Assembly: GCA_017460845.1 (NCBI GenBank)
Contig: JAFUAE010000108.1
Span: 15,567-79,566, forward strand
Direction: 5' to 3'
Origin: Lachnospiraceae bacterium
GTDB lineage: Bacteria; Bacillota; Clostridia; Lachnospirales; Lachnospiraceae
DNA: 64,000 nt
Shown: positions 2,839 through 59,693 of the stretch, piece by piece
Layout of the letters: each line of letters begins with the position of its first letter
Numbering within the stretch: position 1 is the stretch's first letter
The notes under the pieces: generated by a model
Databases searched by the model: none
Told to the model about the DNA's origin: nothing
What the model saw: the letters and a program-made list of their open reading frames with translations, nothing else
Translations under genes and position numbers: made by a program

Positions 2839-4251
2839 TCAGGGCTGTACCCGTACTGCCCGCGAAGCTTCCATGCGTCTGAGCTCAGGCAGCACCGTCA
2901 GCAGCATAGTCGTAAAGGATGCCGTCCCTCCGATCACATTTGAGATTGGCTCCGCCAGGAAAACGCCCTTCAGGCCCAGGCCGAAAAGACCGGGCAGAAG
3001 GATCGTAAGCGGTACGACAATGACCACCTTCCGGAACAGTGAGAAAAAGATGGCCTTCTTTTTCTTTCCAAGCGCCTTAAAGGTCGTTTGTGCGCTGTGC
3101 TGCAGCGCCATAAATACAAAGGCAAAGAAGTACAGATGCATGGAGGGCAGCGCCGCACCGATCAGGCTTTGATCGGATGTAAAGATCGAAAGCAGCGGGA
3201 CCGGGATCGTCTCTACCAGGATCCAGCCGATCAGGGTATAGATACCGGAAACAAGCGACATCATAAAAATACTCTGCCGTACGCGCTGCGGCTTTTCAGC
3301 ACCGTAATTATAACTGATAATCGGAGATGCGCCTTCGACAATTGCAAATGCCGGCACCTCAAGTACCTGGCGCAGGGAAGAGATGATCGTCATGACCGAG
3401 ACATAAAGATCTCCGCCGGTTCCCATCAGTACATGATTGCAGACAGCCGTCACAAGGCCGTTTGTGAACTGCATGACAAATGCAGAAAGCCCTAAGCTGA
3501 CGATGCTGACAGAGGTGCCCGGATCCGGCAGAAGCGTATGTGTGCTCAGACTGAGCCGGTATTCCGCAGCCGATCGTCTGCCGAACAGAAAACGCAGCAC
3601 AAAAACTGCAGACAGCGCCTGGGAAATCACCGTAGCAAGTGCGGCCCCCCTGACGCCCATGCCCAGTATAAAAATGAAGACAGGATCCAGGATGATATTG
3701 CTCAGGGCGCCGATCGTGACCGTAAGCATGCCGATGCGCGGAAAGCCCTGCGCGTTGATAAACGGGTTCATGCCCGTTGCAATCATGACAAATACGGTGC
3801 CCCAGATATAGACCTGCAGATATGGCAGCGCATAAAGGATCGAATCCTGCGAAGCGCCGAACAGATACAGGATCGGACGTCCGAAAATAAAAAAGATCAG
3901 GATCAGCGCAAATCCCGTCAGCATTTCCAGCCGGAAGGATGTATTGATGATCTGTTCTGCCCTTTTCCGGTCTTTTCTGCCCCGTGCAATCGCAAACAGC
4001 GGCGCGCCTCCGCTTCCGTACAAGTTGGTAAATGCCGTGATCAGCATAATCACGGGAAAACAGAGCCCGATCCCGCCGAGCGCGGCAGTGCCTTCCCCGG
4101 GGATCCGGCCGATATAGATGCGGTCTACAATGCTGTAGAGCAGGTTCAGCACCTGCGCCACAAACATCGGGAAAGCAGTCTGGGCAATATTTACGGCGAT
4201 AGAGCCGTTTTCAAAATCAACCTGTTTCATACCGAAAGCATAGTATAGCAT
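2839..4251 (-). CDS. MATE-family efflux transporter
   Basis: 470 aa, about 12 TM helices. Contains the MATE N-terminal motif AQTAFPMFVAQVLNLLYSIVDRIYIGRIPGEGTAALGGIG. The start is uncertain; an in-frame ATG at 4230 is an alternative. Confidence 0.85.
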   Translation of the reverse strand: MLYYAFGMKQVDFENGSIAVNIAQTAFPMFVAQVLNLLYSIVDRIYIGRIPGEGTAALGGIGLCFPVIMLITAFTNLYGSGGAPLFAIARGRKDRKRAEQIINTSFRLEMLTGFALILIFFIFGRPILYLFGASQDSILYALPYLQVYIWGTVFVMIATGMNPFINAQGFPRIGMLTVTIGALSNIILDPVFIFILGMGVRGAALATVISQALSAVFVLRFLFGRRSAAEYRLSLSTHTLLPDPGTSVSIVSLGLSAFVMQFTNGLVTAVCNHVLMGTGGDLYVSVMTIISSLRQVLEVPAFAIVEGASPIISYNYGAEKPQRVRQSIFMMSLVSGIYTLIGWILVETIPVPLLSIFTSDQSLIGAALPSMHLYFFAFVFMALQHSAQTTFKALGKKKKAIFFSLFRKVVIVVPLTILLPGLFGLGLKGVFLAEPISNVIGGTASFTTMLLTVLPELRRMEASRAVRVQP

Positions 4252-21182: not shown

Positions 21183-22544
21183 TTACATCCATATGATCCA
21201 TAACAATATATATCCCGTCAGGACTGCGATCAGCGTGAAGGGCACGGAATAATTCATGAATTCGGCGGTTTTTACCTCATATCCTTCTTTTCTGAGAATG
21301 CCGATGCCGGTGATATTGGCGGAAGCGCCGATCGGGGTCAGGTTGCCGCCGAGCGTCGCGCCGACGATCAGACCGAAATACAGCAGGTTCGGATCGATAT
21401 CAAGCCCTCCCGCCGCAGAGAGCCGTTTTGCCACGACTGCCACGACAGGCAGCATTGTCGCCGTATAGGGGATGTTATCAATAAAGGCCGAAAGCAGGAC
21501 CGAAGCCCAGACGATGACCGTATAGACCAGAAACACGGAGGCCCTGGACCCGTCTCCGCTTAATGAGGCGAGCAGCGAACCGATATAATCGATCAGTCCC
21601 GCTCTTTCAACGCCGCCGATCACAATAAAAAGACCTGTCAGCAGCGCGATCGTATAGTAATCGATCTCCTGGATCGCATTCAGGACTTTATCAAAGGTCC
21701 TGTCCGTATTGACCTGATTTGCCAGCGCGATCAGGAAAAAGAACAGGCAGATCGCACCGTTTGTGATGCCGGGCTTGTAAAACTGCCCGGGCGCTGCATT
21801 TTCCTTATAAGGAATAAATGAAACCAGGATCAGCGAAATGATGGTAGAAAACAGAAGAATCGCCGGGACACGATCCCTTACCTCCGTCTTGCGTTCGACA
21901 TGGATCTCGGCGTTATTACCGCGGAACATATACAGGATGACGAATGAGGTCACCAGCGCGCCCGCCTCCGTGACCCAGAACATGCCGGGCTTTCCTTTTA
22001 CAAAAAAGAAATCCATAAAATCGAGTCCGGCCTGCTTGGCCAGCAGAAGTGAGGTCGTGTCGCCGACCAGGGTAGCCGCTCCCTGCAGATTGGAGGAGAT
22101 GGAAATGCATATGATCGCCGGAACCGGTGAAATATTGAGGCTCCTGCAGATCGAAAGCGCAACCGGCGCGATCATCAGCACAGTCGCGACATTATCCACA
22201 AAGGCTGAAATAATACCTGCAAACAGCGACAGCGCCAGGACCATGATCTTGACCGAATGCACTCTTGCTACGATCAGGTCGCTCATACGGTCCGGCATGC
22301 CGGAATCGATAAACAGAAAAACCGTGCCCATGGTGCCGCTGATCATCATCAGCACATTCCAGTCGACCGCGCGGATCGCATCGATCCACGAATATTGAAA
22401 TCCCGGAAGTATGCCGATGCTGCCGATGATCACAAAAACCAGAGCAGATACGATCGATACATGAGGCCTGATTTTCTGAAAGGAAAACATCAGGACATAG
22501 GTAATAATAAAAATACAAAGTGCTGTCAGTATCGTTATGTTCAT
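21183..22544 (-). CDS. Anion permease of the ArsB/NhaD/SLC13-like (IT) superfamily; candidate C4-dicarboxylate carrier
   Basis: 453 aa polytopic membrane protein with the two-repeat organisation typical of ion-transporter superfamily permeases. The substrate is inferred only from its position next to malic enzyme and fumarase. Confidence 0.6.
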   Translation of the reverse strand: MNITILTALCIFIITYVLMFSFQKIRPHVSIVSALVFVIIGSIGILPGFQYSWIDAIRAVDWNVLMMISGTMGTVFLFIDSGMPDRMSDLIVARVHSVKIMVLALSLFAGIISAFVDNVATVLMIAPVALSICRSLNISPVPAIICISISSNLQGAATLVGDTTSLLLAKQAGLDFMDFFFVKGKPGMFWVTEAGALVTSFVILYMFRGNNAEIHVERKTEVRDRVPAILLFSTIISLILVSFIPYKENAAPGQFYKPGITNGAICLFFFLIALANQVNTDRTFDKVLNAIQEIDYYTIALLTGLFIVIGGVERAGLIDYIGSLLASLSGDGSRASVFLVYTVIVWASVLLSAFIDNIPYTATMLPVVAVVAKRLSAAGGLDIDPNLLYFGLIVGATLGGNLTPIGASANITGIGILRKEGYEVKTAEFMNYSVPFTLIAVLTGYILLWIIWM

Positions 22545-22589
22545 TGAATCAGATATATCTCCTCCCGTCCGTTCCGGACGCGCACATAA

Positions 22590-47802: not shown

Positions 47803-48624
47803 TCAGTTCTGAATCTTATCTTTCTCAGCCGGCGGGCCATCCGGAATCGCATCGATTTCCGGTATGATCTCCCGCAGATTTACTCTGCATTCCCCTCCCC
47901 AGACCAGGACGGGTATATCATCAGTAAAGGTATAAATGACCGGGAGATCCTCATGCTCAAGGTCATAAACAACGACCTGTTTTCTGTCCGTATCCACAAG
48001 CCAGTATTCCCGCACGCCTGCATCGGTATATTTCTTCAGCTTCAGGCTCATGTCCTTTTTGCGGGTAGAGGGCGACAGAATCTCAACAACCAGATCCGGA
48101 GCTCCGTAAATACATCGTTTGATCAGCTTTGACGGATCGCAGAGGATCACAACATCCGGTTCCACCATTGTCTTATTATCTCTGTCCAGCTGGACGCTGA
48201 TCGGCGAAATGTACGGAAAACAGCGGGTCTTCTTTTTCTTCTGAAAAGAGAGCAGCTGGAAATAAATTTCTCCGGCGGCTACCTGATGCTGGACTGCCGG
48301 TGTCGCCATATCATAAAAAACCCCGTCGATCAGTTCTGCCCTGCAGTCATCCGGAAGTGCATAATAATCATCTACCGTATATTCCTTCTGCCGGTTATAA
48401 ACAGGCCGCCCGGAATCACACAGCAAAAACTCCGGAACTCCATGAAAATGATAACCCGTGCCCAGTATCCGTTCCAGCTTCTCGATCGTTTCCCTGCGCG
48501 GGCGTTCCGTGATGCCGCCCAGAACCTTCTGCAGCGTCCCGAGCGGCAGACCGGTCAGCGCTGACAGTTCCTTATAAGAATATCCGAGTTCTGTCTTTCG
48601 CTTTCTCATTTCATCTATCGTCAT
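47803..48624 (-). CDS. XRE-type HTH domain fused to a Uma2 (DUF820) PD-(D/E)xK endonuclease-fold domain (paralogue 1)
   Basis: 273 aa from the ATG at 48624 (RBS AAAGGAG). The HTH is YSYKELSALTGLPLGTLQKVLGG. The nuclease fold has ELIDGVFYDMATP, EPDVVILCD, GAPDLVVEILSPST and YTDAGVREYWLVD. The 405-aa track ORF is an upstream read-through of tandem repeats. Confidence 0.8.
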   Translation of the reverse strand: MTIDEMRKRKTELGYSYKELSALTGLPLGTLQKVLGGITERPRRETIEKLERILGTGYHFHGVPEFLLCDSGRPVYNRQKEYTVDDYYALPDDCRAELIDGVFYDMATPAVQHQVAAGEIYFQLLSFQKKKKTRCFPYISPISVQLDRDNKTMVEPDVVILCDPSKLIKRCIYGAPDLVVEILSPSTRKKDMSLKLKKYTDAGVREYWLVDTDRKQVVVYDLEHEDLPVIYTFTDDIPVLVWGGECRVNLREIIPEIDAIPDGPPAEKDKIQN

Positions 48625-48673
48625 AAGCGGGCTCCTTTCGGCATCTTTCTCTGTTTGTCCTCTGCTTATCCTT

Positions 48674-48702
48674 ATTATAACCTTTTCATCTCCATTTTTC
48701 AA
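48674..48702 (-). promoter_or_regulatory. Near-consensus SigA promoter of HTH-Uma2 paralogue 1
   Basis: On the minus strand: TTGAAA (plus 48697-48702), then a 17-nt spacer, then TATAAT (plus 48674-48679), 50 nt upstream of the ATG. AATATATCCAA (plus 48707-48717) lies just upstream and recurs in the paralogue 2 promoter. Confidence 0.6.
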
Positions 48703-48736
48703 GTAGTTGGATATATTGCGGTTGATTTGTGGATCA

Positions 48737-48836
48737 ATTTCGGCAGATCTATCTCGGCGGATATATCTCGGCGGATAATATCTCGGCGGATATATCTCGG
48801 CGGATAATATCTCGGCGGATATATCTCGGCGGATCA
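48737..48836. repeat. Iteron-like array: 6 perfect plus 1 degenerate copies of ATCTCGGCGGATA with alternating 14/15-bp spacing
   Basis: Unit starts are 48751, 48765, 48780, 48794, 48809 and 48823, with a degenerate unit at 48737. The array is bracketed by the direct repeat GGATCAATTT (48731-48740 and 48831-48840). It lies 35-140 nt upstream of the -35 box of the HTH-Uma2 gene. Confidence 0.9.
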
Positions 48837-48930
48837 ATTTCTGCTGTTTTGCAATCAGATTTTTTGCATGCCACAGTTCTTCAAAGCGCTGATATCCGGT
48901 GTGAACGACCACAGCCTGATTTTCTCTCAA

Positions 48931-49230
48931 TTTTCTCTGTCCTTTTGAATCCTTGATGTCCTGATCGAACTGCCACATCCAGGCTCCTTCATATTTTTCT
49001 CCGTCCTTTTTAGCTCTCAAGGTTCAAAATAGACACCCACATTTTAACATTTCATCATTTTTCTCCGTCCTTTTTGCCGCTCAAGGATTTAAAAGGACAA
49101 CCACATCAATCGATTTAATAACTATTCTCTGTCCGAACCACGTTTTCCGGCAAAAAAAGAACAACCACATCTGACGATTCAACTATTTTTCTCTGTCCTC
49201 TCCATCATTCTGATAATAAAACCAACAGAT
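48931..49230. repeat. Degenerate tandem array of about 62-67-bp units (about 5 copies)
   Basis: Units start at about 48931, 48994, 49058, 49125 and 49186. Each opens with TTTTCTC(C/T)GTCC, and most contain (A/G)ACA(A/C)CCACAT about 40 nt later. Confidence 0.75.
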
Positions 49231-49441: not shown

Positions 49442-50614
49442 TTACTGCATTTTTCTCTGTGCAAACATCCAGTCTCTGAAGCCCTTGTCGGCATACATCG
49501 GTACCCAGGAGAAATGCGCGGAGGTTCCGAATACGGTACCCGGAGCATAAAGTGTTGTCCTGAAGGAAATGCCTGCTGCCGTAAGCGCCTGGATCGTCGG
49601 ATAGTAATACTCATCCGGCTTGACTGTCGGGTCGTCTGCTGCCTGGAAGATCCACATCGGAATACCTCTGAGGGCACCGACCTTGGACGGATCTGCACCT
49701 GCTGCGTCCGGAGCGATTGCTGCAAATACTTCCGGATGCTCGATTGCAAGGGTATAGGTACCGAAGCCGCCTGCGGAAAGACCGGTCATGTAGACTCTGC
49801 TTCTGTCTACGGAATACTCGTTCATGACCTTCTGCAGAAGGTTATAAGCGCCGTAGAGGTAAGGCATGCCGTCAAAAGAATTCGGTGCTGTACCGCCTCT
49901 GTAGCCCATCAGTGTGGTCCAGTTGTCTGTGCTGGTCTTATCAGCAGTCATGGAGCACTGCGGAGCCAGTACGATGCACTGGTTATGTCCGGCCTCGGAA
50001 TCCTTTGCCCAGACTGTTGCCATCTGATATCTCTTCAGGACCATATCTACAGTCTGTGTTCTCTGGCCCGAGCCATGGAGTGCAAATACGATCGGATACT
50101 GCTTTGACGGATCGTAGTTGCTCGGTACGTAGAGCTCATACGGAATATTTACATTGTTCTCTGCATCAAAATAGGTTCCCGGTGTAAACAGGTTGTAAGC
50201 CCAGGTATCGCAGTCTCTGACGACGTTGATGGTGTAGGTCTTGCTGAGTCCGTCCTTGGAAACGACTACCGGGATCGGGGTTACAAGCTCAATATCATAG
50301 TTTGCATAGCTGCCGTCAATGGAAACGATCTTGCCCTGTCCGGAGATTGCTTCATCTCCATTGATCGTAAGAGATGCACCTGCCGGTGCAACTGCTGTTA
50401 CCTTTACGCCGTAGCAGTCAGACTGTACATTATAGGTATAGTCCGTCACGTTTGAGTAGAACGGAATGTTCCTGCCATCCTGCACTGCTGTGGTGATCGA
50501 AAGGCTGATGAGGGAAATATCCCCGTTCCCCTGATCTGCCATGGCCATCTGCGAAGCGCCGATCGTCATGACCGCTGCCATCAGGAGCGCTGCAATTCTT
50601 TTCATCTTTTTCAT
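49442..50614 (-). CDS. Secreted esterase: N-terminal cadherin-like beta-sandwich plus alpha/beta-hydrolase (CE1 / PHB-depolymerase-like esterase) domain
   Basis: 390 aa with a signal peptide (AALLMAAVMTIGASQMAMA). The beta-sandwich segment is ISLISLSITTAV...YTYNVQSDCYGVKVTAVAPAGASLTING. Catalytic motifs are FALHGSG and the nucleophile elbow MTGLSAGGFG. Confidence 0.75.
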   Translation of the reverse strand: MKKMKRIAALLMAAVMTIGASQMAMADQGNGDISLISLSITTAVQDGRNIPFYSNVTDYTYNVQSDCYGVKVTAVAPAGASLTINGDEAISGQGKIVSIDGSYANYDIELVTPIPVVVSKDGLSKTYTINVVRDCDTWAYNLFTPGTYFDAENNVNIPYELYVPSNYDPSKQYPIVFALHGSGQRTQTVDMVLKRYQMATVWAKDSEAGHNQCIVLAPQCSMTADKTSTDNWTTLMGYRGGTAPNSFDGMPYLYGAYNLLQKVMNEYSVDRSRVYMTGLSAGGFGTYTLAIEHPEVFAAIAPDAAGADPSKVGALRGIPMWIFQAADDPTVKPDEYYYPTIQALTAAGISFRTTLYAPGTVFGTSAHFSWVPMYADKGFRDWMFAQRKMQ

Positions 50615-50744
50615 GGTGTCCTCTCCTCTGCTATTTTCACTTCAGCCCTTTTCCCGGGCTCAGCTTTAATATATCCGAAGGAAGGGATTTTTTAAATTTC
50701 AGTGTTATTGACCGGTTCACACTTCATTGTCAAACCGGAACATA

Positions 50745-50765
50745 TGTTCATTTCCGATGAAATGT
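50745..50765 (-). promoter_or_regulatory. Candidate operator shared within the esterase/AraC locus (site 1), directly upstream of a -35 box
   Basis: Plus strand reads TGTTCATTTCCGATGAAATGT. It is part of the direct repeat ATGTTCATTT at 50744 and 50762 (18-bp period). On the minus strand TTGACA (plus 50728-50733) lies 10 nt downstream. The site is 130-150 nt upstream of the esterase ATG. Confidence 0.5.
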
Positions 50766-50815
50766 TCATTTTCGGCTTTTTTCACGGGCCGGCATAGTGA
50801 AAAGTCGCTTAAAGC

Positions 50816-53062
50816 TTACCTCAGAACGGTTTTTCTATACTGTCCCGGCGTCATTCCGACATATTTCTTGAATACGCGAATGAAATTCTGATCGGAATTA
50901 AAGCCGGTCTGCGCACAGATCTCGCTGACCGTAAGGTCCGTATTCTCCAGCAGTTCTTTTGCCTTCCCGATCCTGACTCCGTTCAGGTAATCGGTGAATC
51001 CGGCACTCAGCACATCATTCATCAGCGTACTCAGGTAGGATTTGTTCAGGTTGAGCGCTTCTGCTGCGTCCGTCAGGGAAAGGCTGCTGTTCTGATAGTT
51101 TTTTCCGATATACTCTTTTGCCGCGGCTACATACCGGTTCTTGCGCCTCTTATTGACAGAATCCAGCTCCTTCAGGATCTGTGTGCCATAGGTGTCCGCA
51201 AGCGCCTGCAGCTTGTCATACTCCCCGCTTTCAAGGGCCGCCAGGCAGCTTTCGCCAAGTCCCGGAGGATCTGTCAGGATCCTATTGGAGCTCTCCTCCC
51301 CGGCAAAGATCCGGATCACCTCACCGTAAGCTGCACGTTTTTCCTCATCCCCGCCATACTCCCGGATCTCAGTCATCAGCGTCCGGAATACGGTTTCCGC
51401 GTTTTTCAGGTCTCCTTCCTTCAGATTCTTTTCCAGAAGACTGATCTTCTTTGTCCTTGCCTGATCGAAGCTGATGCCCTCCTGCTTTATAAGGCTTTCC
51501 TCACTCTCCGCCCGTGCGCTGACCGCAGCAGACAGATCCCTGTATGCCAGGGGCAGGCTCTGTATGCCGGAATAAACAAAACTGACAGCCATCCGTACAC
51601 TGAACGGGCGGTTCTCCGAGACTCTCAGCATTTTCTTGTATAGATTGTTCATCCGGCTGCGGATCGTCTGCGATGAAACCTCTTTTGCAAAGCCTGCCAG
51701 GAAAATCAGATCTCCGTTCAGGTGCAGCACCGCCAGCACGGCATCTTTTTCGCGAAGAGCGTCTTCTGCAGTCTTCCGGAGCACTTCCTCAAATCCTGAA
51801 AGCTCCCCAAGTCCCGGAGCACTGTTTTCCGCCTCTCTTGCCAGGATCATACAGTATTTACTGTCCATGCGGAAACCGGATCCCGTATGCTCTATGATCT
51901 TCCGAACCTCTTCTTCATCCGCATTTTCTTCGATCACACCGATCAGTGTCCGTTCCAGCGCCTCTCCCGAGATCTCACGGAGGACATTCTGCATATGGCT
52001 TTCTTTTTCTGCGGAATAATTATATTCCCTGGCCAGGAAATCCATTTCGTTCTTTGAGCTCTGAAGTCTTTCCGTGGTCGTCTGGTCCTGCATGAGAATA
52101 TTCTCAACGATGCTTTTGATCGGTCTGGAAATGCTGACCGAAATCACAACTGAGGCCAGGAAACTTATAAGCAGCATGATCCCGAGTACAGGCAGCATGG
52201 AAAACAGATTCTGGGTCAGGCTTAACTCGGCAAATCCGAAATCATAGCGGAAAATGTACTGCCAGTCCAGATAATCCGACCGGCAGAAATAAAAGTCCCC
52301 GTCCCATGCAGATCCTGCCGCGCTGAAATCAGCTGCCGCGAGCATCTGCTCGGCCGCATCAGGCATGCCCGAGACCCGGATCAGGATACCGTCGGTATCC
52401 GACACGAGATAGTCCCATCCCGGATCATGGTCCATCGAAGAAAACAGCTCGGCTGTATCCAGCTTTACGATCAGGCGGGACAGCGGCTCCCTGACGGAAT
52501 ACAGAAATTCCATGCACAGGTACAGACTGTCCCCGACCCTTCTCAGGGAAACATTCCAGAAGCGGTTCCGCTCCGTATAATGCAAACCTTTTCCATCCAG
52601 GATCCGGTCCAGCTCCTGCTGAAGGCCGCTTTCCCGTTTTTTGCTGATGATACCCGAGGAGGTATACAATTCGTCCCCTCCGGATTCATAAAGGATCACG
52701 GAGTCGATCCCGCTGTTGTACTGCTGCAGATTCCGGAGCAGGGACAGGATCTCGATATTTCTCGCATTGTGATTTTTATCCAGAATACCCGGAGTTATCG
52801 CGGCATTCACTACGGAGCTTTCATTTGCAAGCTGGAGCATCCGCTGCTGAATATTTTCCACCTTCTGGTCAATGTGTGAGATCTCGTAGCCCGCAGTCCT
52901 CTGAAACGCTTCCTGCATGCCGCTGCGGATATTGCGGTACATGAAGCGGCTGACCAGCCCGTAAAACACCAGGCTGATCAGTACGGTCAATGCCGCCAGA
53001 GACAGAAATGTTCTGACAAAGAGGCTGTTAAATCTGAGATTTTCCCTGAATGATTTCTTCAT
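50816..53062 (-). CDS. Membrane-anchored AraC/XylS-family transcriptional regulator with an extracytoplasmic sensor domain
   Basis: 748 aa. TM1 is FLSLAALTVLISLVFYGLV, followed by an external domain of about 250 aa and TM2 LPVLGIMLLISFLASVVISVSI. A long cytoplasmic linker leads to the C-terminal double HTH (LSLTDAAEALNLNKSYLSTLM...VSEICAQTGFNSDQNFIRVFKKYVGMTPGQYR). Confidence 0.8.
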   Translation of the reverse strand: MKKSFRENLRFNSLFVRTFLSLAALTVLISLVFYGLVSRFMYRNIRSGMQEAFQRTAGYEISHIDQKVENIQQRMLQLANESSVVNAAITPGILDKNHNARNIEILSLLRNLQQYNSGIDSVILYESGGDELYTSSGIISKKRESGLQQELDRILDGKGLHYTERNRFWNVSLRRVGDSLYLCMEFLYSVREPLSRLIVKLDTAELFSSMDHDPGWDYLVSDTDGILIRVSGMPDAAEQMLAAADFSAAGSAWDGDFYFCRSDYLDWQYIFRYDFGFAELSLTQNLFSMLPVLGIMLLISFLASVVISVSISRPIKSIVENILMQDQTTTERLQSSKNEMDFLAREYNYSAEKESHMQNVLREISGEALERTLIGVIEENADEEEVRKIIEHTGSGFRMDSKYCMILAREAENSAPGLGELSGFEEVLRKTAEDALREKDAVLAVLHLNGDLIFLAGFAKEVSSQTIRSRMNNLYKKMLRVSENRPFSVRMAVSFVYSGIQSLPLAYRDLSAAVSARAESEESLIKQEGISFDQARTKKISLLEKNLKEGDLKNAETVFRTLMTEIREYGGDEEKRAAYGEVIRIFAGEESSNRILTDPPGLGESCLAALESGEYDKLQALADTYGTQILKELDSVNKRRKNRYVAAAKEYIGKNYQNSSLSLTDAAEALNLNKSYLSTLMNDVLSAGFTDYLNGVRIGKAKELLENTDLTVSEICAQTGFNSDQNFIRVFKKYVGMTPGQYRKTVLR

Positions 53063-53067
53063 ACAGA

Positions 53068-54261
53068 TTACAAAGCATCCACTTTTTCATAAAAGCCTTC
53101 GGGGAAGATCCCTTCCAGCATTTCCTTTGTGGCGGAAAGCAGCAGCTGCCTGATGCGCCTTTGCTCCTTTTCTTCCGGTACGATTGTTTCGATCCCGGCT
53201 TTTTCGGCCTGGCTGTATGCAGCTTCCTGTCCCGCCATGTACTGCTCAAAGGCAGTCCGGCTGTATTTTCTGGCACAGTCGGTCAGAATATTGCGGTCAT
53301 TTTCATCGATCTGCATCAGGGCCTTCTCGTTGATCAGCAGAAGCAGTGTCGAATACGCATGCTCCGTCTTGATCTGATAATGGATCTGGCTGATCATATC
53401 TGAATTTACAATGGTCTCCACATTATTTTCCAGCCCGTCAATATAACCGGACTGGAGCGCGGCGCTGCAGTCGCTTAACGGCAGCGGAACGACTTCGGCC
53501 TTCAGGGCCTGAAACTCCTTTTCCCGTATCCTGACGCCGGCCGGGATCCGGAGCCTGAGTCCTGAAAAATCCTCCGCCCGGTAGACCCTTGCTTCCCTTA
53601 GCCAGACATTCCTGACGCCGTCATGAAAAAGAGCGAGTGAACGGATCCCGCTTTCCTGCCGGAAGCGGTCCAGGAGTTCACGGCAGATATCGCTCTCATA
53701 AAAACGATTTACCTTTTCCGCCGAGGTAAACAGGCCGGGCATGCCGAATATAACGAAATGAGGGTCGATCGCCTCAAGCGCAGCCGTAGATACCAGGCAC
53801 ATTTCCACCGTTCCCTGGCGTATGCCGCTCAGATATTCCACCTGGTCCCCGAGCGAACTGGAATCGTAGATCTGAATGTCGATCCTTCCCGAGGTCTCGC
53901 GGAACACCTCCTCCGAAAACCCTCTGAGCGCATTCAGTGCCATCATTTCCGGATTCAGCGTAGATGCCAGCTTGAGGACGATCCTGTTTTCGTCACCGGG
54001 CCAGATATCCGGCTGATCCGAAGCTTCAGTCTCCGCCGTTGTTGCCGGGATATCCGAAGGCATTGCGCCGGAGGCGCTTTCGACGGCATTTGCAGCATTT
54101 GCAGTGTCTGCAATGTCCGCTGCCGGGTTCGTTTTGCCGGAGCAGCCGGCCAATAGCAGCGCAAAAAGGAAAACGGCTATGATCAGAATTCCCGGCAGGC
54201 GCCCTGACGGATGCACCGGTACGCATTCCTTAAGGCCCGTCATATTAAACTTTCGTTTCAT
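53068..54261 (-). CDS. DctP-type (TRAP-family) solute-binding lipoprotein, orphan (no DctQ/DctM nearby)
   Basis: 397 aa. Lipobox is LLLAGCSG. SGRIDIQIYDSSSLGDQVEYLSGIRQGTVEMCLVSTAAL aligns with the DctP core. The carboxylate-clamping Arg context is conserved (FHDGVRNVW). It ends 5 nt before the AraC gene start. Confidence 0.75.
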   Translation of the reverse strand: MKRKFNMTGLKECVPVHPSGRLPGILIIAVFLFALLLAGCSGKTNPAADIADTANAANAVESASGAMPSDIPATTAETEASDQPDIWPGDENRIVLKLASTLNPEMMALNALRGFSEEVFRETSGRIDIQIYDSSSLGDQVEYLSGIRQGTVEMCLVSTAALEAIDPHFVIFGMPGLFTSAEKVNRFYESDICRELLDRFRQESGIRSLALFHDGVRNVWLREARVYRAEDFSGLRLRIPAGVRIREKEFQALKAEVVPLPLSDCSAALQSGYIDGLENNVETIVNSDMISQIHYQIKTEHAYSTLLLLINEKALMQIDENDRNILTDCARKYSRTAFEQYMAGQEAAYSQAEKAGIETIVPEEKEQRRIRQLLLSATKEMLEGIFPEGFYEKVDAL

Positions 54262-54273
54262 ATTGTGATCCTC

Positions 54274-54293
54274 CGTTCTTCCTGATGAAGGTT
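54274..54293 (-). promoter_or_regulatory. Weaker third occurrence of the shared motif, in the leader of the binding-protein gene
   Basis: Plus strand CGTTCTTCCTGATGAAGGTT compared with TGTTCTTTCTGATGAAATGT gives 15 of 20 identical. It lies 13-32 nt upstream of the ATG and overlaps the RBS region, so it may be fortuitous. Confidence 0.3.
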
Positions 54294-54404
54294 TTCCGGG
54301 AAATAAAGCTCCTATTATGAAATACCGGAAGAAAGCAGCTGCAGGCAGCCGCCTTCTTCCATGTAATCATAACTTAAAATGTCAAAAATGTAAAAACCGC
54401 AGTC

Positions 54405-55487
54405 TTATTTTGCAAACTGATCCTTCACAAACCGCAGCGCGCAGTTTGCGCCGAACTCACCCTGATTGCCGTGTGTCGTGGAGGAGGTTCCGAACATATA
54501 TGCCTCAACCCCGTACTTTGTCAGGGCTTCAAACAGCTCATAGCTCTGTGCCGGAGCGACTCTGTGGTCTTTTCCGCCAAACAGGATCATAAACGGAACA
54601 TCGTTTTTATCCGTAAAATTCAGCGGGCAGGCAAGGTACGCTCTGTGAAGCGCAGCCTGCGTCTCCTCATCGGCGTCGGGATTAATATACGGGCTTCCCG
54701 GATTTCCCATCTGTGCCCTGAGTGCATACAGGCCCTGGTTTTCTCCCGTATATCCGATCAGCAGAGATCTGGAGGATTCCGGATCATCCGCCTGCTTGTA
54801 CATTTCCGCAGGATCGATGATGTGCGGTCTCAGATACTGTGCCGGTGCAAGGTCCAGAATGTCTGTCATTCCATAGTAGTCCACAACTGCCAGCGGCTTG
54901 GAGGAGTATTCCAGGTTTCCTCCGACCTCGCCCTCCAGCTCCTCCACGCCATCCGTGGTGCCGAGGATATTGCACAGCTGCGCGCCTGCGCTCTGACCCC
55001 AGACAATGATCCTGTCCGGATCGATGTTGTACTCATCCGCATGGGCTCTCAGGAATCGGATCTGGCCCTTGAGGTCCCAGACCATTGCCGGATACAGGGC
55101 TTCATTTGCAAGCCTGTAATCTGCCGTCACGACTGTGATGCCCATATCAAGGGCTCTCATGCAGGCGAAAAACGGATCATTGGTACCTGTATCCTTCTCC
55201 ATCAGATTCTCGCAGGTATAGTCTCCGGAAGTCCATGCTCCGCCGTGTACATAAAGGATCACGGGAGTCGGCCCGCTGACATTTTCCGGGTTGTATATAT
55301 TCATGCGAAGCTCCCTGGAAGGGCCGGCCTCGGAAAGCTCTGTATCTACTGTATCCACTACGACATCTGCAAATGTCGGCTTCTTTTCAAAATGTGTCCC
55401 CTCGAGCGGCTTATATTCCGCGAAAGAGCAGAGATGCGCGCCGAGCACGAGTGATACGCCAAGCAATACGGATAAAACTTTTTTCAT
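54405..55487 (-). CDS. Secreted alpha/beta-hydrolase esterase (HGG-type oxyanion hole, GQSAG nucleophile elbow), paralogue A
   Basis: 360 aa with a signal peptide. Contains VILYVHGGAWTSGD, IIVWGQSAGAQL and C-terminal TTHGNQG (catalytic His context). It lies 18 nt downstream of paralogue B. Confidence 0.8.
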   Translation of the reverse strand: MKKVLSVLLGVSLVLGAHLCSFAEYKPLEGTHFEKKPTFADVVVDTVDTELSEAGPSRELRMNIYNPENVSGPTPVILYVHGGAWTSGDYTCENLMEKDTGTNDPFFACMRALDMGITVVTADYRLANEALYPAMVWDLKGQIRFLRAHADEYNIDPDRIIVWGQSAGAQLCNILGTTDGVEELEGEVGGNLEYSSKPLAVVDYYGMTDILDLAPAQYLRPHIIDPAEMYKQADDPESSRSLLIGYTGENQGLYALRAQMGNPGSPYINPDADEETQAALHRAYLACPLNFTDKNDVPFMILFGGKDHRVAPAQSYELFEALTKYGVEAYMFGTSSTTHGNQGEFGANCALRFVKDQFAK

Positions 55488-55505
55488 TTTCCTGCCTCCT
55501 CTGCA

Positions 55506-56789
55506 TTAATATAATGAAGGTTCTTCCAGTCCGAACTGGTTGCATACAAACCTTGCCGCCGCATCGTCTGCAAACGGGCCCTGGTTGCCGTGGGACTGAA
55601 GTGTGCTGGTAAACATATAGGCTTCGATCCCCTCTTTGGTCAGCGCATCAAAGAGTCTCTCGCTCTGCACCATGGCAACGCGGAAATCCATACCGCCCTG
55701 GCAGATAAAGAAGGGGCAGTCATCCTTGCTGATGAAATTCAGCGGGGAAGCCAGATATGCTCTGTGAAGCGCAGCCTGGTCATATTCCGGAATTTCCGGA
55801 TTCTCATACGGATTCGACGGATTGCCCAGTTCGCCGCGCAGGTAAGCATTTCCCTCTCCGTCCACCTCTCCGCCGAAGCCAAGCAGCTGGCCGCGGGTGG
55901 CTGTTTTTGCATCGTTGGTATCATACAGAGACTGGAAGCCCTGCACATACGGCCGCACATACTGATCCGGTGCAAGCTGCAGGATCTCCGTCATTCCGAA
56001 ATAATCGACAACTGCCGTCGGCTTTGAGGAGAATTCCAGATTTCCGCCCACATCTCCCTCAAGCTCTTCCACACCGTCCGTGGTGCCGAGAATGTTGACC
56101 AGCTGGCCGCCTGCGGATTCTCCCCAGACAATGATCCTGTCAGGATCGATCCCGTATTCGTCCGCATGCGCTCTCAGGAAGCGGATCTGGCCCTTCAGGT
56201 CCCAGATCATCGCCGGATAGGATGCTTCCTGGCTCAGTCTGTAATCCGCGGTCACAACCGTGCATCCGTAATCGACCATCTTCATGCAGGCAAGGAAGGT
56301 GCCGTTTTCCTTATTTCCATCCATCAGGCTGGCGCAGGTATAATCGCCCGAGCTCCACTTTCCGCCGTGTACATAGATCACTGCCGGAGTTGCTTCCTCC
56401 GTGCCTTCCGGCTTGTAAATATTCATTTTTAATTCTCTGGAGGTTCCTGCTCCCGCAATTTCGGTATCCACCTCGGCAACGACCACATCGCTGAATGCCG
56501 GCTTGCCTTCAAATACGGGGAACTTCGGCTTTTCTTCGGCAGCCTTTGTTTCTGCCGGTGCAGTCTCAGCCGCAGCGCTTGTCTCCGAAACAGCTTTGGT
56601 CTCTGCTGCCGCAGTTTCCTGTACTGCTTCAGTTGTCTCTGCCGGGGCCTCCGCTTTCGTTTCCGCTGCTGCGGTTTCGACCGCCGCAGTTTCCTGTACT
56701 GCTGCCGTCTGTGATGTGCCGCTTCCCGAGCAGGCCGTCAGCATAGCTGCTCCCAGCATTGCCGCTCCCAATAAACATCTCTTTCTCAT
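55506..56789 (-). CDS. Lipoprotein alpha/beta-hydrolase esterase, paralogue B, with an Ala/Glu/Thr-rich linker
   Basis: 427 aa. Lipobox is AMLTACSG and the linker has repeated AAETKA/ETAAA. Contains VIYVHGGKWSSGD, IIVWGESAGGQL and LQSHGNQG. The DNA is about 85% identical to paralogue A across the core (for example 55000-55110 against 56120-56230). Confidence 0.8.
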   Translation of the reverse strand: MRKRCLLGAAMLGAAMLTACSGSGTSQTAAVQETAAVETAAAETKAEAPAETTEAVQETAAAETKAVSETSAAAETAPAETKAAEEKPKFPVFEGKPAFSDVVVAEVDTEIAGAGTSRELKMNIYKPEGTEEATPAVIYVHGGKWSSGDYTCASLMDGNKENGTFLACMKMVDYGCTVVTADYRLSQEASYPAMIWDLKGQIRFLRAHADEYGIDPDRIIVWGESAGGQLVNILGTTDGVEELEGDVGGNLEFSSKPTAVVDYFGMTEILQLAPDQYVRPYVQGFQSLYDTNDAKTATRGQLLGFGGEVDGEGNAYLRGELGNPSNPYENPEIPEYDQAALHRAYLASPLNFISKDDCPFFICQGGMDFRVAMVQSERLFDALTKEGIEAYMFTSTLQSHGNQGPFADDAAARFVCNQFGLEEPSLY

Positions 56790-56932
56790 AAGATTCTTCT
56801 GCTCCTTTCTGACAGAGTCATACCCTGATGATTTTCAGGACGCTTGACTTTAAATCCGCGTCCTGTGTCAAAAATATACAAAAAATCAAATGAACGGTAA
56901 ATTTTGAAATGTTCTGATGATTTTCAATTATT

Positions 56933-56952
56933 TGTTCTTTCTGATGAAATGT
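56933..56952 (-). promoter_or_regulatory. Candidate operator shared within the esterase/AraC locus (site 2)
   Basis: Plus strand reads TGTTCTTTCTGATGAAATGT, 145-165 nt upstream of the paralogue B ATG. Related half-sites GAAATGTTCTGATGA (56906-56920) and AAATGAACGG (56888-56897) are nearby. Confidence 0.5.
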
Positions 56953-57045
56953 GAAATTTCAGATGAGATGTATATAAAAACAGCCGTCCGGGGGAGTGCC
57001 CCGGGCAGCCGTAACAGAGAATCCGATATTATCCGGATCAGAAGT

Positions 57046-58254
57046 TTATTTCTCAGGTTTTTCCTCGTAGATGGCCGCAAGACCTCCGTGCGAGGTCTCC
57101 CGGTATTTTTCATTCATATCGAGACCGGTCCTGTACATTGTGTCGATGACCTGGTCGAGGGAGATCCGCCTGGTCTCATAGAGGAAACGGGAAATATTGA
57201 CCGAATTGACGGCGCGCATGGCCGCAACGGCATTTCTCTCGATACACGGGATCTGCACGAGTCCTTTTACCGGATCGCAGGTCAGCCCGAGATGATGCTC
57301 CATCGCAATCTCCGCCGCATATTCGATCTGACGGATATTGAGCCCGTACAGGCTGGCCAGAGCACCTGCCGCCATGGAGCAGGCAGAACCGATCTCCGCC
57401 TGGCATCCGCACTCCGCGCCTGAGATGCTGGCATTGGTCTGGATCACATTTCCGATGATGCCGGCAACCGCCAGGGCGTCAAGGATCTCATCCTCCCCGA
57501 AGCCGCGGTCATGGCGCATATAATAAAAGAGAGCAGGGATGACGCCGCAGCTGCCGCAGGTCGGTGCGGTCACGACGATGTGCTCGTCAGCATTTTCCTC
57601 ACTCACTGCAAATGCATAGGCCGCCAGGGTCCGCTCCATGGTGATGTCCGAGCTTTCATTGTGGCAGCGCATGGCGTAAAGCTTCCTGGCCTTGCGGGTC
57701 AGCTTCAGGCCGCCGGGCAGGGTCCCGTCCGCTGCCAGTCCCCTTTCTACGGCATCTTCCATCGTATGCCAGACCTCTCTCAGATACTCACGGAGCGCAG
57801 CTTCTCCCTCTGTGCGGTATACAAACTGACTGATGGTGCTCCCTTCTGCCTCACAGGCTTCAAGGATCTGGGCGAAATTTTTCTGTGCGTAGATCTCGTC
57901 TTCCTCTTCGGAGCTTTCTCCTTCGATCCGGATGGAGCCTCCGCCGATACTCATGATCCTCACCGAGGCGATCTCGACGCCCTTTTGATACGCCCTGAAC
58001 AGCATCGTATTCGGATGCGGCAGATCTGATGTTTTCTTGTCGAATATTACTTTAGCCCCCGGAATTGCCGAACGTACCGCCTTCCCGGTACCGTGGCCGG
58101 CTCCCGTAAATGCGAGAGAGCCGTATAGTGTCACTTCAAAGCTGTCCGCTTCCGGATAGCGGGCGCGGAAAAGCTTTGCCGCGCGGTAGGGACCGACCGT
58201 ATGGGAGCTGGATGGTCCGTGTCCGATCTTATATATTTGCCGGATCGTTTTCAT
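57046..58254 (-). CDS. sdaA: L-serine ammonia-lyase (iron-sulfur-dependent, single-chain form)
   Basis: 402 aa. Contains IYKIGHGPSSSHTVGP at the N-terminus plus GSCGVIPA, GAECGCQAEIGSACSMAA and LGLTCDPVKGLVQIPCIERNA, the cluster-binding and catalytic motifs of L-serine dehydratases. Confidence 0.9.
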   Translation of the reverse strand: MKTIRQIYKIGHGPSSSHTVGPYRAAKLFRARYPEADSFEVTLYGSLAFTGAGHGTGKAVRSAIPGAKVIFDKKTSDLPHPNTMLFRAYQKGVEIASVRIMSIGGGSIRIEGESSEEEDEIYAQKNFAQILEACEAEGSTISQFVYRTEGEAALREYLREVWHTMEDAVERGLAADGTLPGGLKLTRKARKLYAMRCHNESSDITMERTLAAYAFAVSEENADEHIVVTAPTCGSCGVIPALFYYMRHDRGFGEDEILDALAVAGIIGNVIQTNASISGAECGCQAEIGSACSMAAGALASLYGLNIRQIEYAAEIAMEHHLGLTCDPVKGLVQIPCIERNAVAAMRAVNSVNISRFLYETRRISLDQVIDTMYRTGLDMNEKYRETSHGGLAAIYEEKPEK

Positions 58255-58365: not shown

Positions 58366-59244
58366 TCAGGGCTCTATACTTTCGAATTCTTCTATAATTT
58401 CCCTGATGCGGTCAAGATCGATCAGCAGCTCTTCCTCAAAAATACCGATGGCGTACTTTCCTTCCAATGGAAGTATGTGGGTCTGCGGTCTGGAATAATC
58501 ATAGACGACCAGCTTATTTTTATAGGGATCAATGATCCAGTATTCCCTGACCCCGGCATCCATGTATTTTGTAGCTTTCACGATCTTATCCTTAGCTGCC
58601 GTGGAGGGTGATATTACCTCCAGCACAAAGTCCGGAGCTCCGAGAATGCTGTCCTTTCGAAGCTTGCTCCTGTCACAGACCACAAACAGATCGGGGATCA
58701 CATAGGTTGAATCCCTGTTTCCGTCCAGAAAGATGCCGACCGGAGCCAGAGATACCATGCACTTACCCTTATGATCTCGTATATGCTGATGAATCGCAAG
58801 AAAGACCTCCTCCCCGATTTTCTGATGGATCCAGCTGGGCGTCGCCATATCAAACAGCATTCCGTCAATCAGTTCATACAATCTTCCCTCCGGCAGTTTC
58901 TCAAGATCCGAAAACGTATATTCCCCCTGTTCCTTGAGCGGTGCTCCATATGCGATTGCCTTTTCACAAAGCATCCATGGAGTGTTTTCCCCTGTTTCCG
59001 GAGAATAGCCGGGAATCTCACGCTTCGGAATCTCTTCTCCCTGATAGCTGTACAGATCTCCCGGCAGCCAGGAACGCTGCCGAAAAAAATCCTCGATCTG
59101 CTTCATGGTATCGACTCTCGGATTCTTCGTCTGCCCTGACAAAATCTTGGTCAGGGTACCAAGCGGCACGCCGGTATACTCCGAAAGCTGGGCAGCGCTG
59201 TAGCCGCGCTCTGCTTTGATCTTTAACATTTCTTCTCTCGTCAT
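58366..59244 (-). CDS. XRE-type HTH domain fused to a Uma2 (DUF820) PD-(D/E)xK endonuclease-fold domain (paralogue 2)
   Basis: 292 aa from the ATG at 59244 (RBS AGGAGG). The HTH is YSAAQLSEYTGVPLGTLTKILSG. The nuclease fold has ELIDGMLFDMATP, IPDLFVVCD, GAPDFVLEVISPST and YMDAGVREYWIID. About 40% identical to paralogue 1. Confidence 0.8.
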   Translation of the reverse strand: MTREEMLKIKAERGYSAAQLSEYTGVPLGTLTKILSGQTKNPRVDTMKQIEDFFRQRSWLPGDLYSYQGEEIPKREIPGYSPETGENTPWMLCEKAIAYGAPLKEQGEYTFSDLEKLPEGRLYELIDGMLFDMATPSWIHQKIGEEVFLAIHQHIRDHKGKCMVSLAPVGIFLDGNRDSTYVIPDLFVVCDRSKLRKDSILGAPDFVLEVISPSTAAKDKIVKATKYMDAGVREYWIIDPYKNKLVVYDYSRPQTHILPLEGKYAIGIFEEELLIDLDRIREIIEEFESIEP

Positions 59245-59306
59245 CTTCGGCCTCCTGTCTCCGTCTTTTTCAAATATGTGATCCAAAAGTCAATTATTCT
59301 ATACCG

Positions 59307-59334: not shown

Positions 59335-59500
59335 CCATATTTGGTTATTCATTCCATTAATGGTTATTAATCGTTATATCAAAGCGGCTGATCACAGCCC
59401 GGTCACTGACCGGCATGAATGCAGCCGACATTGAAGTGCAGCTGCCTTCAGCGAATTCTGCTCTTGACCCTCTGGCTCTAAAAGTATAGTATAAGCTCTT

Positions 59501-59524
59501 GGAAAATGGACGAAAAAAGAAAGC
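59501..59524 (+). repeat. Left copy of the perfect 24-bp direct repeat flanking repeat copy F
   Basis: GGAAAATGGACGAAAAAAGAAAGC is identical to 59670-59693. Its last 13 nt form a perfect inverted repeat with the adjacent GCTTTCTTTTTTC (59527-59539). Confidence 0.95.
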
Positions 59525-59537
59525 AAGCTTTCTTTTT

Positions 59538-59662
59538 TCAGGACATTTGACAAGGCAACAAGTATGAGCAATAAAGGCACGCGAGTGAAACGAGCGGGGC
59601 GAGTTGCGAATACTTGTTAGCGATGCGGGAGCTGCTTTAGCAGCAGAGCAGCGCGCAGCTTA
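59538..59662 (+). repeat. Full copy of the repeat family (F)
   Basis: Sequence CAGGACATTTGACAAGGCAACAAGTATGAGCAATAAAGGCACGCGAGTGAAACGAGCGGGGCGAGTTGCGAATACTTGTTAGCGATGCGGGAGCTGCTTTAGCAGCAGAGCAGCGCGCAGCTTAT. It is collinear with A1. The mini-hairpin is replaced by GCTGC-TTTA-GCAGC (59631-59644). Confidence 0.85.
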
Positions 59663-59669
59663 TAAAAAA

Positions 59670-59693
59670 GGAAAATGGACGAAAAAAGAAAGC
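59670..59693 (+). repeat. Right copy of the perfect 24-bp direct repeat flanking repeat copy F
   Basis: GGAAAATGGACGAAAAAAGAAAGC is identical to 59501-59524. It lies 45 nt upstream of the pepD start. Confidence 0.95.

Follow-up and report, generated by a model that had tools for sequence, protein, structure and literature searches.

Why does the gene of a binding protein from a transporter family stand directly beside the gene of a membrane-anchored AraC regulator, among genes of secreted esterases? This question is raised by a block of five genes in a stretch of DNA of 64,000 nucleotides (the whole stretch is called the window here) from a Lachnospiraceae bacterium (assembly GCA_017460845.1, contig JAFUAE010000108.1). 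The source genome is a metagenome-assembled genome (MAG) which is 88% complete. The binding protein, named here dctP(S), belongs to the DctP family of TRAP (tripartite ATP-independent periplasmic) transporters, and the regulator is named mAraC. An earlier interpretation of the letters of this DNA, the sequence-only reading, had proposed that the two proteins form a sensing circuit for the esterases. Among the readings of the pair, a sensing role of the binding protein has the best support, and on the sequence comparisons described below we hold it with about even confidence.

The binding protein and the membrane regulator

The gene dctP(S) is located at positions 53068..54261 of the minus strand and encodes a lipoprotein with the lipobox LLAGC, the proposed ligand-binding co-receptor. 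The Pfam model DctP (PF03480) matches it with an E-value of 1.8e-51 and 175.6 bits against a cut-off of 23.4, and the NCBIfam model TRAP_S1 gives 146.7 bits against 50. Residue R217, in the fragment FHDGVRNVW, aligns with the Arg of the GFRN motif in the solved DctP proteins 4p47 and 7bbr. The fragment IDGLENN aligns with DGQEN of solved DctP proteins, which is the DGxEN motif. Both R217 and IDGLENN are invariant among the orthologues, and the carboxylate-clamping Arg recognized in DGVRN by the sequence-only reading is therefore kept. The dN/dS ratio is 0.10-0.16, with dS saturated, and across orthologues the binding protein is better conserved than the regulator (66-69% versus 51-53% identity). 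A decaying pseudo-binding protein is rejected in view of the purifying selection and the intact motifs. The stop codon of dctP(S) and the ATG of mAraC are 5 nt apart, exactly as had been noticed before, and such tight coupling of DctP to the regulator, by a 5-nt gap or by overlapping genes, recurs across lineages.

The gene mAraC (50816..53062, minus strand) encodes a one-component regulator of 748 amino acid residues with two transmembrane (TM) helices, as described by Pfam, hydropathy and an AlphaFold model. The chain consists of TM1 (residues ~14-39), a dCache-like ectodomain (~40-275), TM2 (~284-312), a GGDEF_2-like domain (396-513) and a double AraC helix-turn-helix (HTH) (635-745). In Pfam, residues 635-745 at the C-terminus match HTH_18 (5.6e-21) and HTH_AraC (3.5e-15), the GGDEF_2 match at residues 396-513 is weak, and the dCache_1 match has 17.9 bits against the Pfam cut-off of 45. 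Hydropathy gives two clear TM peaks, at residues ~11-42 and ~280-315. The AlphaFold model (pLDDT 82.8) contains a long helix of residues 14-79, two α/β modules within residues 82-272 and another long helix of residues 276-325. Foldseek relates the ectodomain to the dCache sensors KinD (4jgo), DctB (3e4o), Tlp3, TlpA and McpH with TMt values of 0.50-0.59, and the HTH to AraT (6swi), YesN (3lsg) and 2k9s with TMt values of 0.82-0.88. The protein departs from the soluble cytoplasmic AraC/XylS plan by its two TM helices around an ectodomain of ~240 residues and by its GGDEF_2-like cytoplasmic linker. The two helices and the external domain had been predicted from the letters of the DNA, and hydropathy and the AlphaFold model agree with that prediction. 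No kinase core or receiver domain was found with Pfam in mAraC, in 63 homologues or in the neighboring genes. A hidden two-component system is rejected, since the block holds no kinase or receiver gene.

The extent of the mAraC family became visible in an exhaustive search with the first 630 residues as the query and the HTH left out. This gave 181 representative clusters, nearly all of 740-790 residues. An earlier word-indexed protein search had returned only four full-length relatives, and a pattern-based contig scan with the regulator alignment gave only unrelated AraC HTH matches, in Bacteroidota. All 63 homologues sampled have the AraC HTH, 29 have GGDEF_2, 11 have dCache_1 (best E-value 1.3e-15), and none has a kinase or receiver domain. 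A family profile searched across 301 genomes of the order matched many full-length copies and also proteins of ~535 residues which align only to profile positions 356-765. The two such proteins that were checked consist of REC, GGDEF_2 and AraC HTH domains, and each adjoins a kinase with dCache_1, HAMP, His_kinase and HATPase domains. At the level of sequence and fold comparison, the domains of the homologues, the Foldseek matches and the ~535-residue YesN-type regulators show mAraC to be the sensor of a YesM-type kinase joined to the output half of a response regulator of YesN type, with the phosphorelay missing. It is a kinase-less transmembrane transcription factor. The sequence-only reading had regarded signaling from a binding protein to a membrane-embedded AraC as outside the textbooks; the AraC protein with two TM helices is real, but it is not a one-off, and its architecture is shared by a family that is large in this order and descends from YesM/YesN systems.

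The TRAP membrane components are missing near dctP(S). Hidden Markov models (HMMs) detected no DctQ or DctM above the cut-off in the block, in the 64-kb window or on the orthologous contigs, which bears out what had been said of the window before. The only DctM-like match is sub-threshold (21 bits, E = 1e-4) and lies ~30 kb away, at window positions 22089-22580 inside an open reading frame (ORF) of 453 residues. This may be another permease of the ion-transporter superfamily rather than a TRAP component. The dctP(S) lipoprotein has left its TRAP transport context. The source genome contains eight DctP and eight unfused DctM genes. Six DctP-DctQM sets are each found together on one contig, and one more pair is split across the ends of contigs C36 and C136. 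Six of the other seven DctP genes are near DctM on their own contig, and the seventh, on C36, is cut at the contig end. One further DctQM pair, on contig C107, is preceded by GntR-type regulator-like and acyl-CoA dehydrogenase-like genes, so named from their N-terminal sequences alone, and by an ORF of 361 residues with no family assigned. No close orthologue of this DctQM was found in the congeners searched.

Pairing of DctP and mAraC across genomes

The order DctP-mAraC-estC, in which estC is the esterase gene downstream of the regulator, is kept in all four orthologous contexts at regulator identities down to 52%. Co-occurrence of the pair in other genomes was a check named by the sequence-only reading, and the result is favorable: DctP adjoins the regulator in 4/4 orthologous loci and in nine of the 11 members of the regulator's clade. 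With ~8 DctP genes in the roughly 2,400 genes of such a genome, the adjacency is more than chance.

The neighborhoods compared span ~14 kb for each of 40 further members of the family and more than that for eight members found earlier, with DctP, DctQ and DctM mapped by HMMs built from the source genome. Most mAraC members adjoin gene triads sized like CUT1-type sugar ATP-binding cassette (ABC) transporters, and at the three such loci checked Pfam finds SBP_bac_1/SBP_bac_8 together with BPD_transp_1. In a minority the direct neighbor is a DctP gene. In the tree of 50 regulator sequences all DctP-linked copies fall in a single clade of 11 (SH-aLRT 98), which holds the nine DctP-adjacent members and a paralogue from contig C8 of the source genome. 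The remaining 39 members make up the other clade, in which none has an adjacent DctP, and this clustering of the DctP label on the tree was matched in 0 of 500 shuffles.

The C8 locus (L033, 6143-11534) contains a paralogous mAraC of 755 residues that is divergent from a complete DctP-DctQ-DctM operon. The mAraC of the window is sister to the C8 mAraC (support 91) and dctP(S) is sister to the C8 DctP (98/97); therefore the pair was duplicated as a unit. The trees suggest that after the duplication the window copy lost DctQM and came beside the esterase genes. The two DctP proteins have only 27% identity, and in the tree of DctP proteins the stem branch of dctP(S) is long. The orthologous loci and the trees thus describe a conserved and co-duplicated pair, in agreement with the earlier view that the binding protein and the membrane AraC belong together.

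It is important to compare these loci with those in which the pair and a transporter occur side by side. Genome G485 has two loci in which mAraC is followed by two DctP genes, the first divergent (149 bits) and the second canonical (268 bits), and then by DctQ and DctM. The two sets, L072 and L074, are arranged in tandem on contig C21, ~11 kb apart, and L072 adjoins genes for a family III CoA-transferase and an enoyl-CoA hydratase. The divergent DctP of L072 is without the lipobox cysteine, and that of L074 has lost the Arg clamp. In G061 the genes DctQ-DctM-DctP are followed by mAraC-DctP. Judged from these sequences, the AraC-adjacent DctP is not the transport subunit in such related loci, because a second, canonical DctP serves DctQM. 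In G215 (L073, contig C78, 1054-8304), mAraC is followed by a DctP-type protein, after which come an ABC permease and an ABC binding protein of DUF3502 type, so that a TRAP-family binding protein neighbors an ABC transporter. At two more loci mAraC-DctP is followed by a HAD hydrolase. Some of the mAraC-adjacent DctP proteins (L074_S and L039_S) have lost the Arg clamp, and this loss would fit a docking role better than a role in transport or capture.

Esterase genes and candidate operators

All five ORFs of the block are on the minus strand, and the ORF map and the Pfam and NCBIfam domains place them exactly where the sequence-only reading had put them. The esterase gene estC (49442..50614, minus strand) encodes a secreted protein with a plain signal peptide, an N-terminal cadherin-like/Ig-like domain (Pfam Cadherin-like, 1.7e-08) and a CE1 / PHB-depolymerase-like α/β hydrolase domain (Pfam Esterase) with the motif GLSAG. 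Of the solved proteins, Thermotoga maritima EstA (3doh, 6.7e-46) is its best relative, and the gene follows mAraC at all four orthologous loci. The other two esterases belong to the BD-FAE family and have a pairwise identity of 63%. The lipoprotein esterase estA (55506..56789, minus strand; Pfam BD-FAE 4e-44) has the lipobox LTAC, the oxyanion motif HGG and the nucleophile elbow GESAG. The gene estB (54405..55487, minus strand; Pfam BD-FAE 2.6e-45) starts 18 nt downstream of estA and encodes a secreted esterase with a plain signal peptide and the motif GQSAG; among its closest solved relatives are 6xyc, an acetyl xylan esterase, 6tkx, a carbohydrate esterase, and 6mly, a GH43-CE protein. The orthologous locus L019 has estA, while L017 and L018 have neither estA nor estB; the contig of GCA_016648615.1 is too short to be judged. 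All genes of the proposed five-gene block are thus present, but the conserved core is DctP-AraC-estC, since the BD-FAE esterases are missing at two of the four orthologous loci.

The block is probably an accessory island, because the mAraC gene was found in 0 of 32 other species of the genus. Two paralogous HTH-Uma2 genes flank it, at window positions 47803-49020 and 58366-59286 (minus strand), and a serine dehydratase gene (57046-58254) is also enclosed between them. An Rfam search of the block gave no known RNA. A full-length Clostridiales-1 RNA motif (RF01699, 78 bits) is located at window positions 59491-59663 of the plus strand, upstream of a peptidase gene at 59675.

A tandem 18-bp direct repeat upstream of estC, GCCGAAAATGAACAT-TTC-ATCGGAAATGAACAT (50744..50776, minus strand), is the candidate operator of mAraC. 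Both copies are invariant in the alignment with two orthologous regions (L017 and L019), in which they form an island. A third TGAAC box (50715..50719, minus strand) follows the tandem repeat and precedes the -10-like hexamer TATATT (50668..50673, minus strand), which is TATAYT in the orthologues; the box corresponds to alignment columns 112-116, invariant in three orthologous regions. Upstream of estA there is a candidate regulator site TTCATCAGAAAGAACA (56933..56948, minus strand), which is weaker than the estC site and follows a pattern derived post hoc. A promoter-like sequence TTTACC-17-TATATT (56901-56873, minus strand) is located just downstream of it, and the estA upstream region of L019 contains the boxes ATGAACA, ATGTACA and ATGAACA. 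A weak match TTCATCAGGAAGAACG (54274..54289, minus strand) overlaps the ribosome-binding region of dctP(S) and may be due to chance.

The 16-mer derived from the repeat is found upstream of all three transcription units. It occurs 44 times in the genome and three times in the block, a count that is inflated by the post hoc choice of the pattern. A genome-wide scan for the tandem operator with a position weight matrix gave the estC site by far the highest rank, but this site is in the training set and the estA site was not recovered, so that little is gained from the scan. The intergenic region of the C8 paralogue has no GAACA repeat. From these sequence patterns, regulation of estC by mAraC is likely and that of estAB is plausible. 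The proposal that the regulator controls the esterase promoters stands best for estC; its conserved repeat, together with the weaker matches before the other two units, fits local autoregulation.

The dctP-mAraC unit is preceded by a promoter-like sequence TTTACA-17-TATGAT (54366..54394, minus strand), which agrees with the consensus at 10 of 12 positions and is no more than a consensus match. Directly downstream of it is a 16-bp GC-rich hairpin (54326..54361, minus strand) with a minimum free energy of -34.8 kcal/mol and z = -3.4, and a transcript from this sigma-70-like promoter would start with the hairpin. A similar hairpin occurs upstream of dctP in L017 (~1255-1300), L018 and L019 (~3445-3490), though the upstream genes differ there. 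The hairpin may serve estAB as a terminator or dctP-mAraC as a leader element (stabilizer or attenuator), or do both.

Proposed circuit and alternative explanations

The conserved core of the proposed circuit would be the three-gene unit of dctP(S), mAraC and estC, extended here by estA-estB. The protein dctP(S) would act as an extracytoplasmic co-receptor that binds a carboxylate-bearing compound through the Arg clamp, and its ligand is plausibly a product of the secreted esterases; the hydroxycinnamate named by the sequence-only reading would be one putative example. The liganded, closed dctP(S) would dock on the dCache ectodomain of mAraC, and the signal would cross through TM2 to the cytoplasmic module. 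The regulator would then activate transcription at the direct repeats with GAACA that immediately precede the estC promoter, and probably also act at the estAB promoter and at its own. A three-component system of binding protein, kinase and AraC-type regulator would in this way be collapsed to two proteins. More generally, the mAraC-adjacent DctP proteins could be dedicated non-transporting co-receptors of a kinase-less transmembrane AraC, which arose repeatedly from transport proteins as YesM/YesN systems collapsed; we propose this tentatively, at slightly less than even confidence.

Several points weigh against the sensing role of dctP(S). Its contact with mAraC is proposed from gene adjacency, co-duplication and the pairs of divergent and canonical DctP duplicates. 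Sequence identity to the nearest solved DctP proteins is only ~25-30%. The 16-mer matches upstream of estA and dctP(S) are weaker than the estC site, post hoc and arranged differently. By analogy with dCache domains such as those of DctB and KinD, which bind small acids directly, the ectodomain may need no partner. The DctQM of the sister paralogue on C8 could in principle accept dctP(S). A genome-wide search for DctQM was a check named by the sequence-only reading, and all but one DctQM proved to be paired with a DctP; the exception is at the end of C107 (12745-13870), where DctQ and a partial DctM have no known DctP in this incomplete MAG, which leaves some room for a transport partner.

The last three points lead to an alternative explanation, in which the dCache domain of mAraC binds the signal itself and dctP(S) is a transport subunit for the C107 or C8 DctQM that is merely co-regulated. 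The Foldseek matches of the ectodomain to dCache sensors that bind ligands, succinate-bound DctB among them, speak for it, as do the absence of a DctP upstream of the C107 DctQM, the sister position of dctP(S) to the C8 DctP with the ligand clamp kept, and the fact that most mAraC family members adjoin ABC transporters, in which the binding protein is a subunit for transport. However, the mAraC-adjacent DctP of both G485 loci and of G061 occurs alongside a canonical DctP with its own DctQM, the adjacent transporter in G215 is of ABC and not of TRAP type, the divergence of dctP(S) from the C8 DctP is large, and the tight coupling to the regulator gene recurs across lineages. In addition, the C107 DctP by analogy probably lies beyond the contig end, in unassembled sequence, because the nearest paralogue of this DctQM, on C40, has the gene order Q-M-x-P. 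We consider this explanation unlikely, although direct sensing by the dCache domain is a serious rival. It is quite unlikely that dctP(S) is only a target of mAraC, a surface protein for capture or retention of esterase products or substrates with non-TRAP uptake and no signaling. Its membrane anchor, its place in one block with secreted esterases and the weak motif match upstream of dctP(S) would agree with such a role, which nevertheless leaves unexplained both the co-duplication of regulator and binding protein and their pairing while the outputs vary (esterases, TRAP, ABC, HAD hydrolase); the Arg loss in L074_S and L039_S is also a better fit to a docking partner than to a capture protein. 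That dctP(S) is what remains of a mAraC/DctPQM module which decayed and lost DctQM, with no present role, the esterases being neighbors by accident of island insertion, is very improbable. The absence of the block from the 32 other species and the bracketing HTH-Uma2 genes, consistent with recent acquisition and rearrangement, would suit such a relic, but the low dN/dS, the intact frame, lipobox and binding motifs, the higher conservation of dctP(S) than of the regulators and the same triad kept in four separate contexts oppose it.

Sensing through the binding protein has known counterparts, in which dedicated sensor binding proteins dock on kinase ectodomains: XylFII-LytS, HptA-HptS and CuaD-CuaS (PMC8050422, PMC10384115). 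The closest systems are the three-component sugar sensors XylFII-LytS-YesN of Clostridium beijerinckii, HptA-HptS-HptR of Staphylococcus aureus, CuaD-CuaS-CuaR of Ruminiclostridium cellulolyticum and AraP-AraS-AraT of Geobacillus. In these, as is proposed for dctP(S)-mAraC, the gene of a dedicated non-transporting binding protein is found beside that of a membrane sensor. HptS has a dCache-like ectodomain and LytS a TarH/4-helix-bundle-like one (PMC8050422), and the systems share with mAraC the YesN-type output of GGDEF_2-like and AraC HTH domains. Their targets are neighboring uptake or degradation genes (PMC8050422, PMC10384115), whereas here secreted esterases are predicted. However, mAraC is without the histidine kinase core, HAMP and receiver domains and combines sensor and DNA-binding output in one polypeptide, and its partner is of the TRAP DctP family (PF03480) instead of the ABC-type family. 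The only DctP proteins in PMC8050422 are transport subunits, named in a table on expression that depends on ligands, and no membrane transcription factor is listed there.

The hybrid two-component systems of Bacteroidota, for example BT1754, also have an extracytoplasmic sensor and a cytoplasmic AraC HTH in one membrane protein, and the solved fragment 12aw of such a system matches the HTH of mAraC. Their kinase, phosphotransfer and receiver domains are retained, and sensing is done by a periplasmic domain of their own; mAraC has no kinase, phosphotransfer or receiver domain and has a separate putative binding-protein partner. ToxR/ToxS, VtrA/VtrC (PMC9214523) and CadC/LysP resemble the proposal for mAraC as membrane one-component factors that sense through a separately encoded partner. 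These regulators have an N-terminal winged-helix OmpR-type DNA-binding domain, a single TM helix and lipocalin-like or permease partners; in mAraC the DNA-binding domain is a C-terminal AraC HTH, two TM helices flank a dCache ectodomain, and the putative partner is of DctP type. The TRAP DctPQM systems (SiaP, DctP, TarP) share with dctP(S) the DctP family, the lipoprotein anchor and the Arg and DGxEN motifs. They differ from it in that no DctQM adjoins dctP(S), which is tightly linked to a regulator and has a long stem branch, and separate transport-type DctP proteins are present at the paralogous loci. No description of this layout or architecture was found in the literature, of which the coverage was incomplete. 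Papers on Lachnospiraceae polysaccharide loci (gpPUL) speak only of AraC-type regulators and do not mention a membrane anchor (PMC5320581, PMC10318527).

The layout recurs in gut and rumen Clostridia. If dctP(S) is indeed a co-receptor, mAraC would be the first one-component transcription factor dependent on a solute-binding protein, and the TRAP DctP family would gain its first signaling role. Binding-protein sensing would then need no phosphorelay, as a two-protein transmembrane switch would carry an outside signal straight to DNA. The 'orphan' TRAP binding proteins and many ~760-residue 'AraC family' genes of gut and rumen Clostridia would gain an annotation, and a compact and modular biosensor chassis could be made by exchanging the binding protein and retaining the regulator. 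For the organism, the secreted esterases would report their own product back to their own promoters, which suggests how plant-fiber-stripping esterases are induced.

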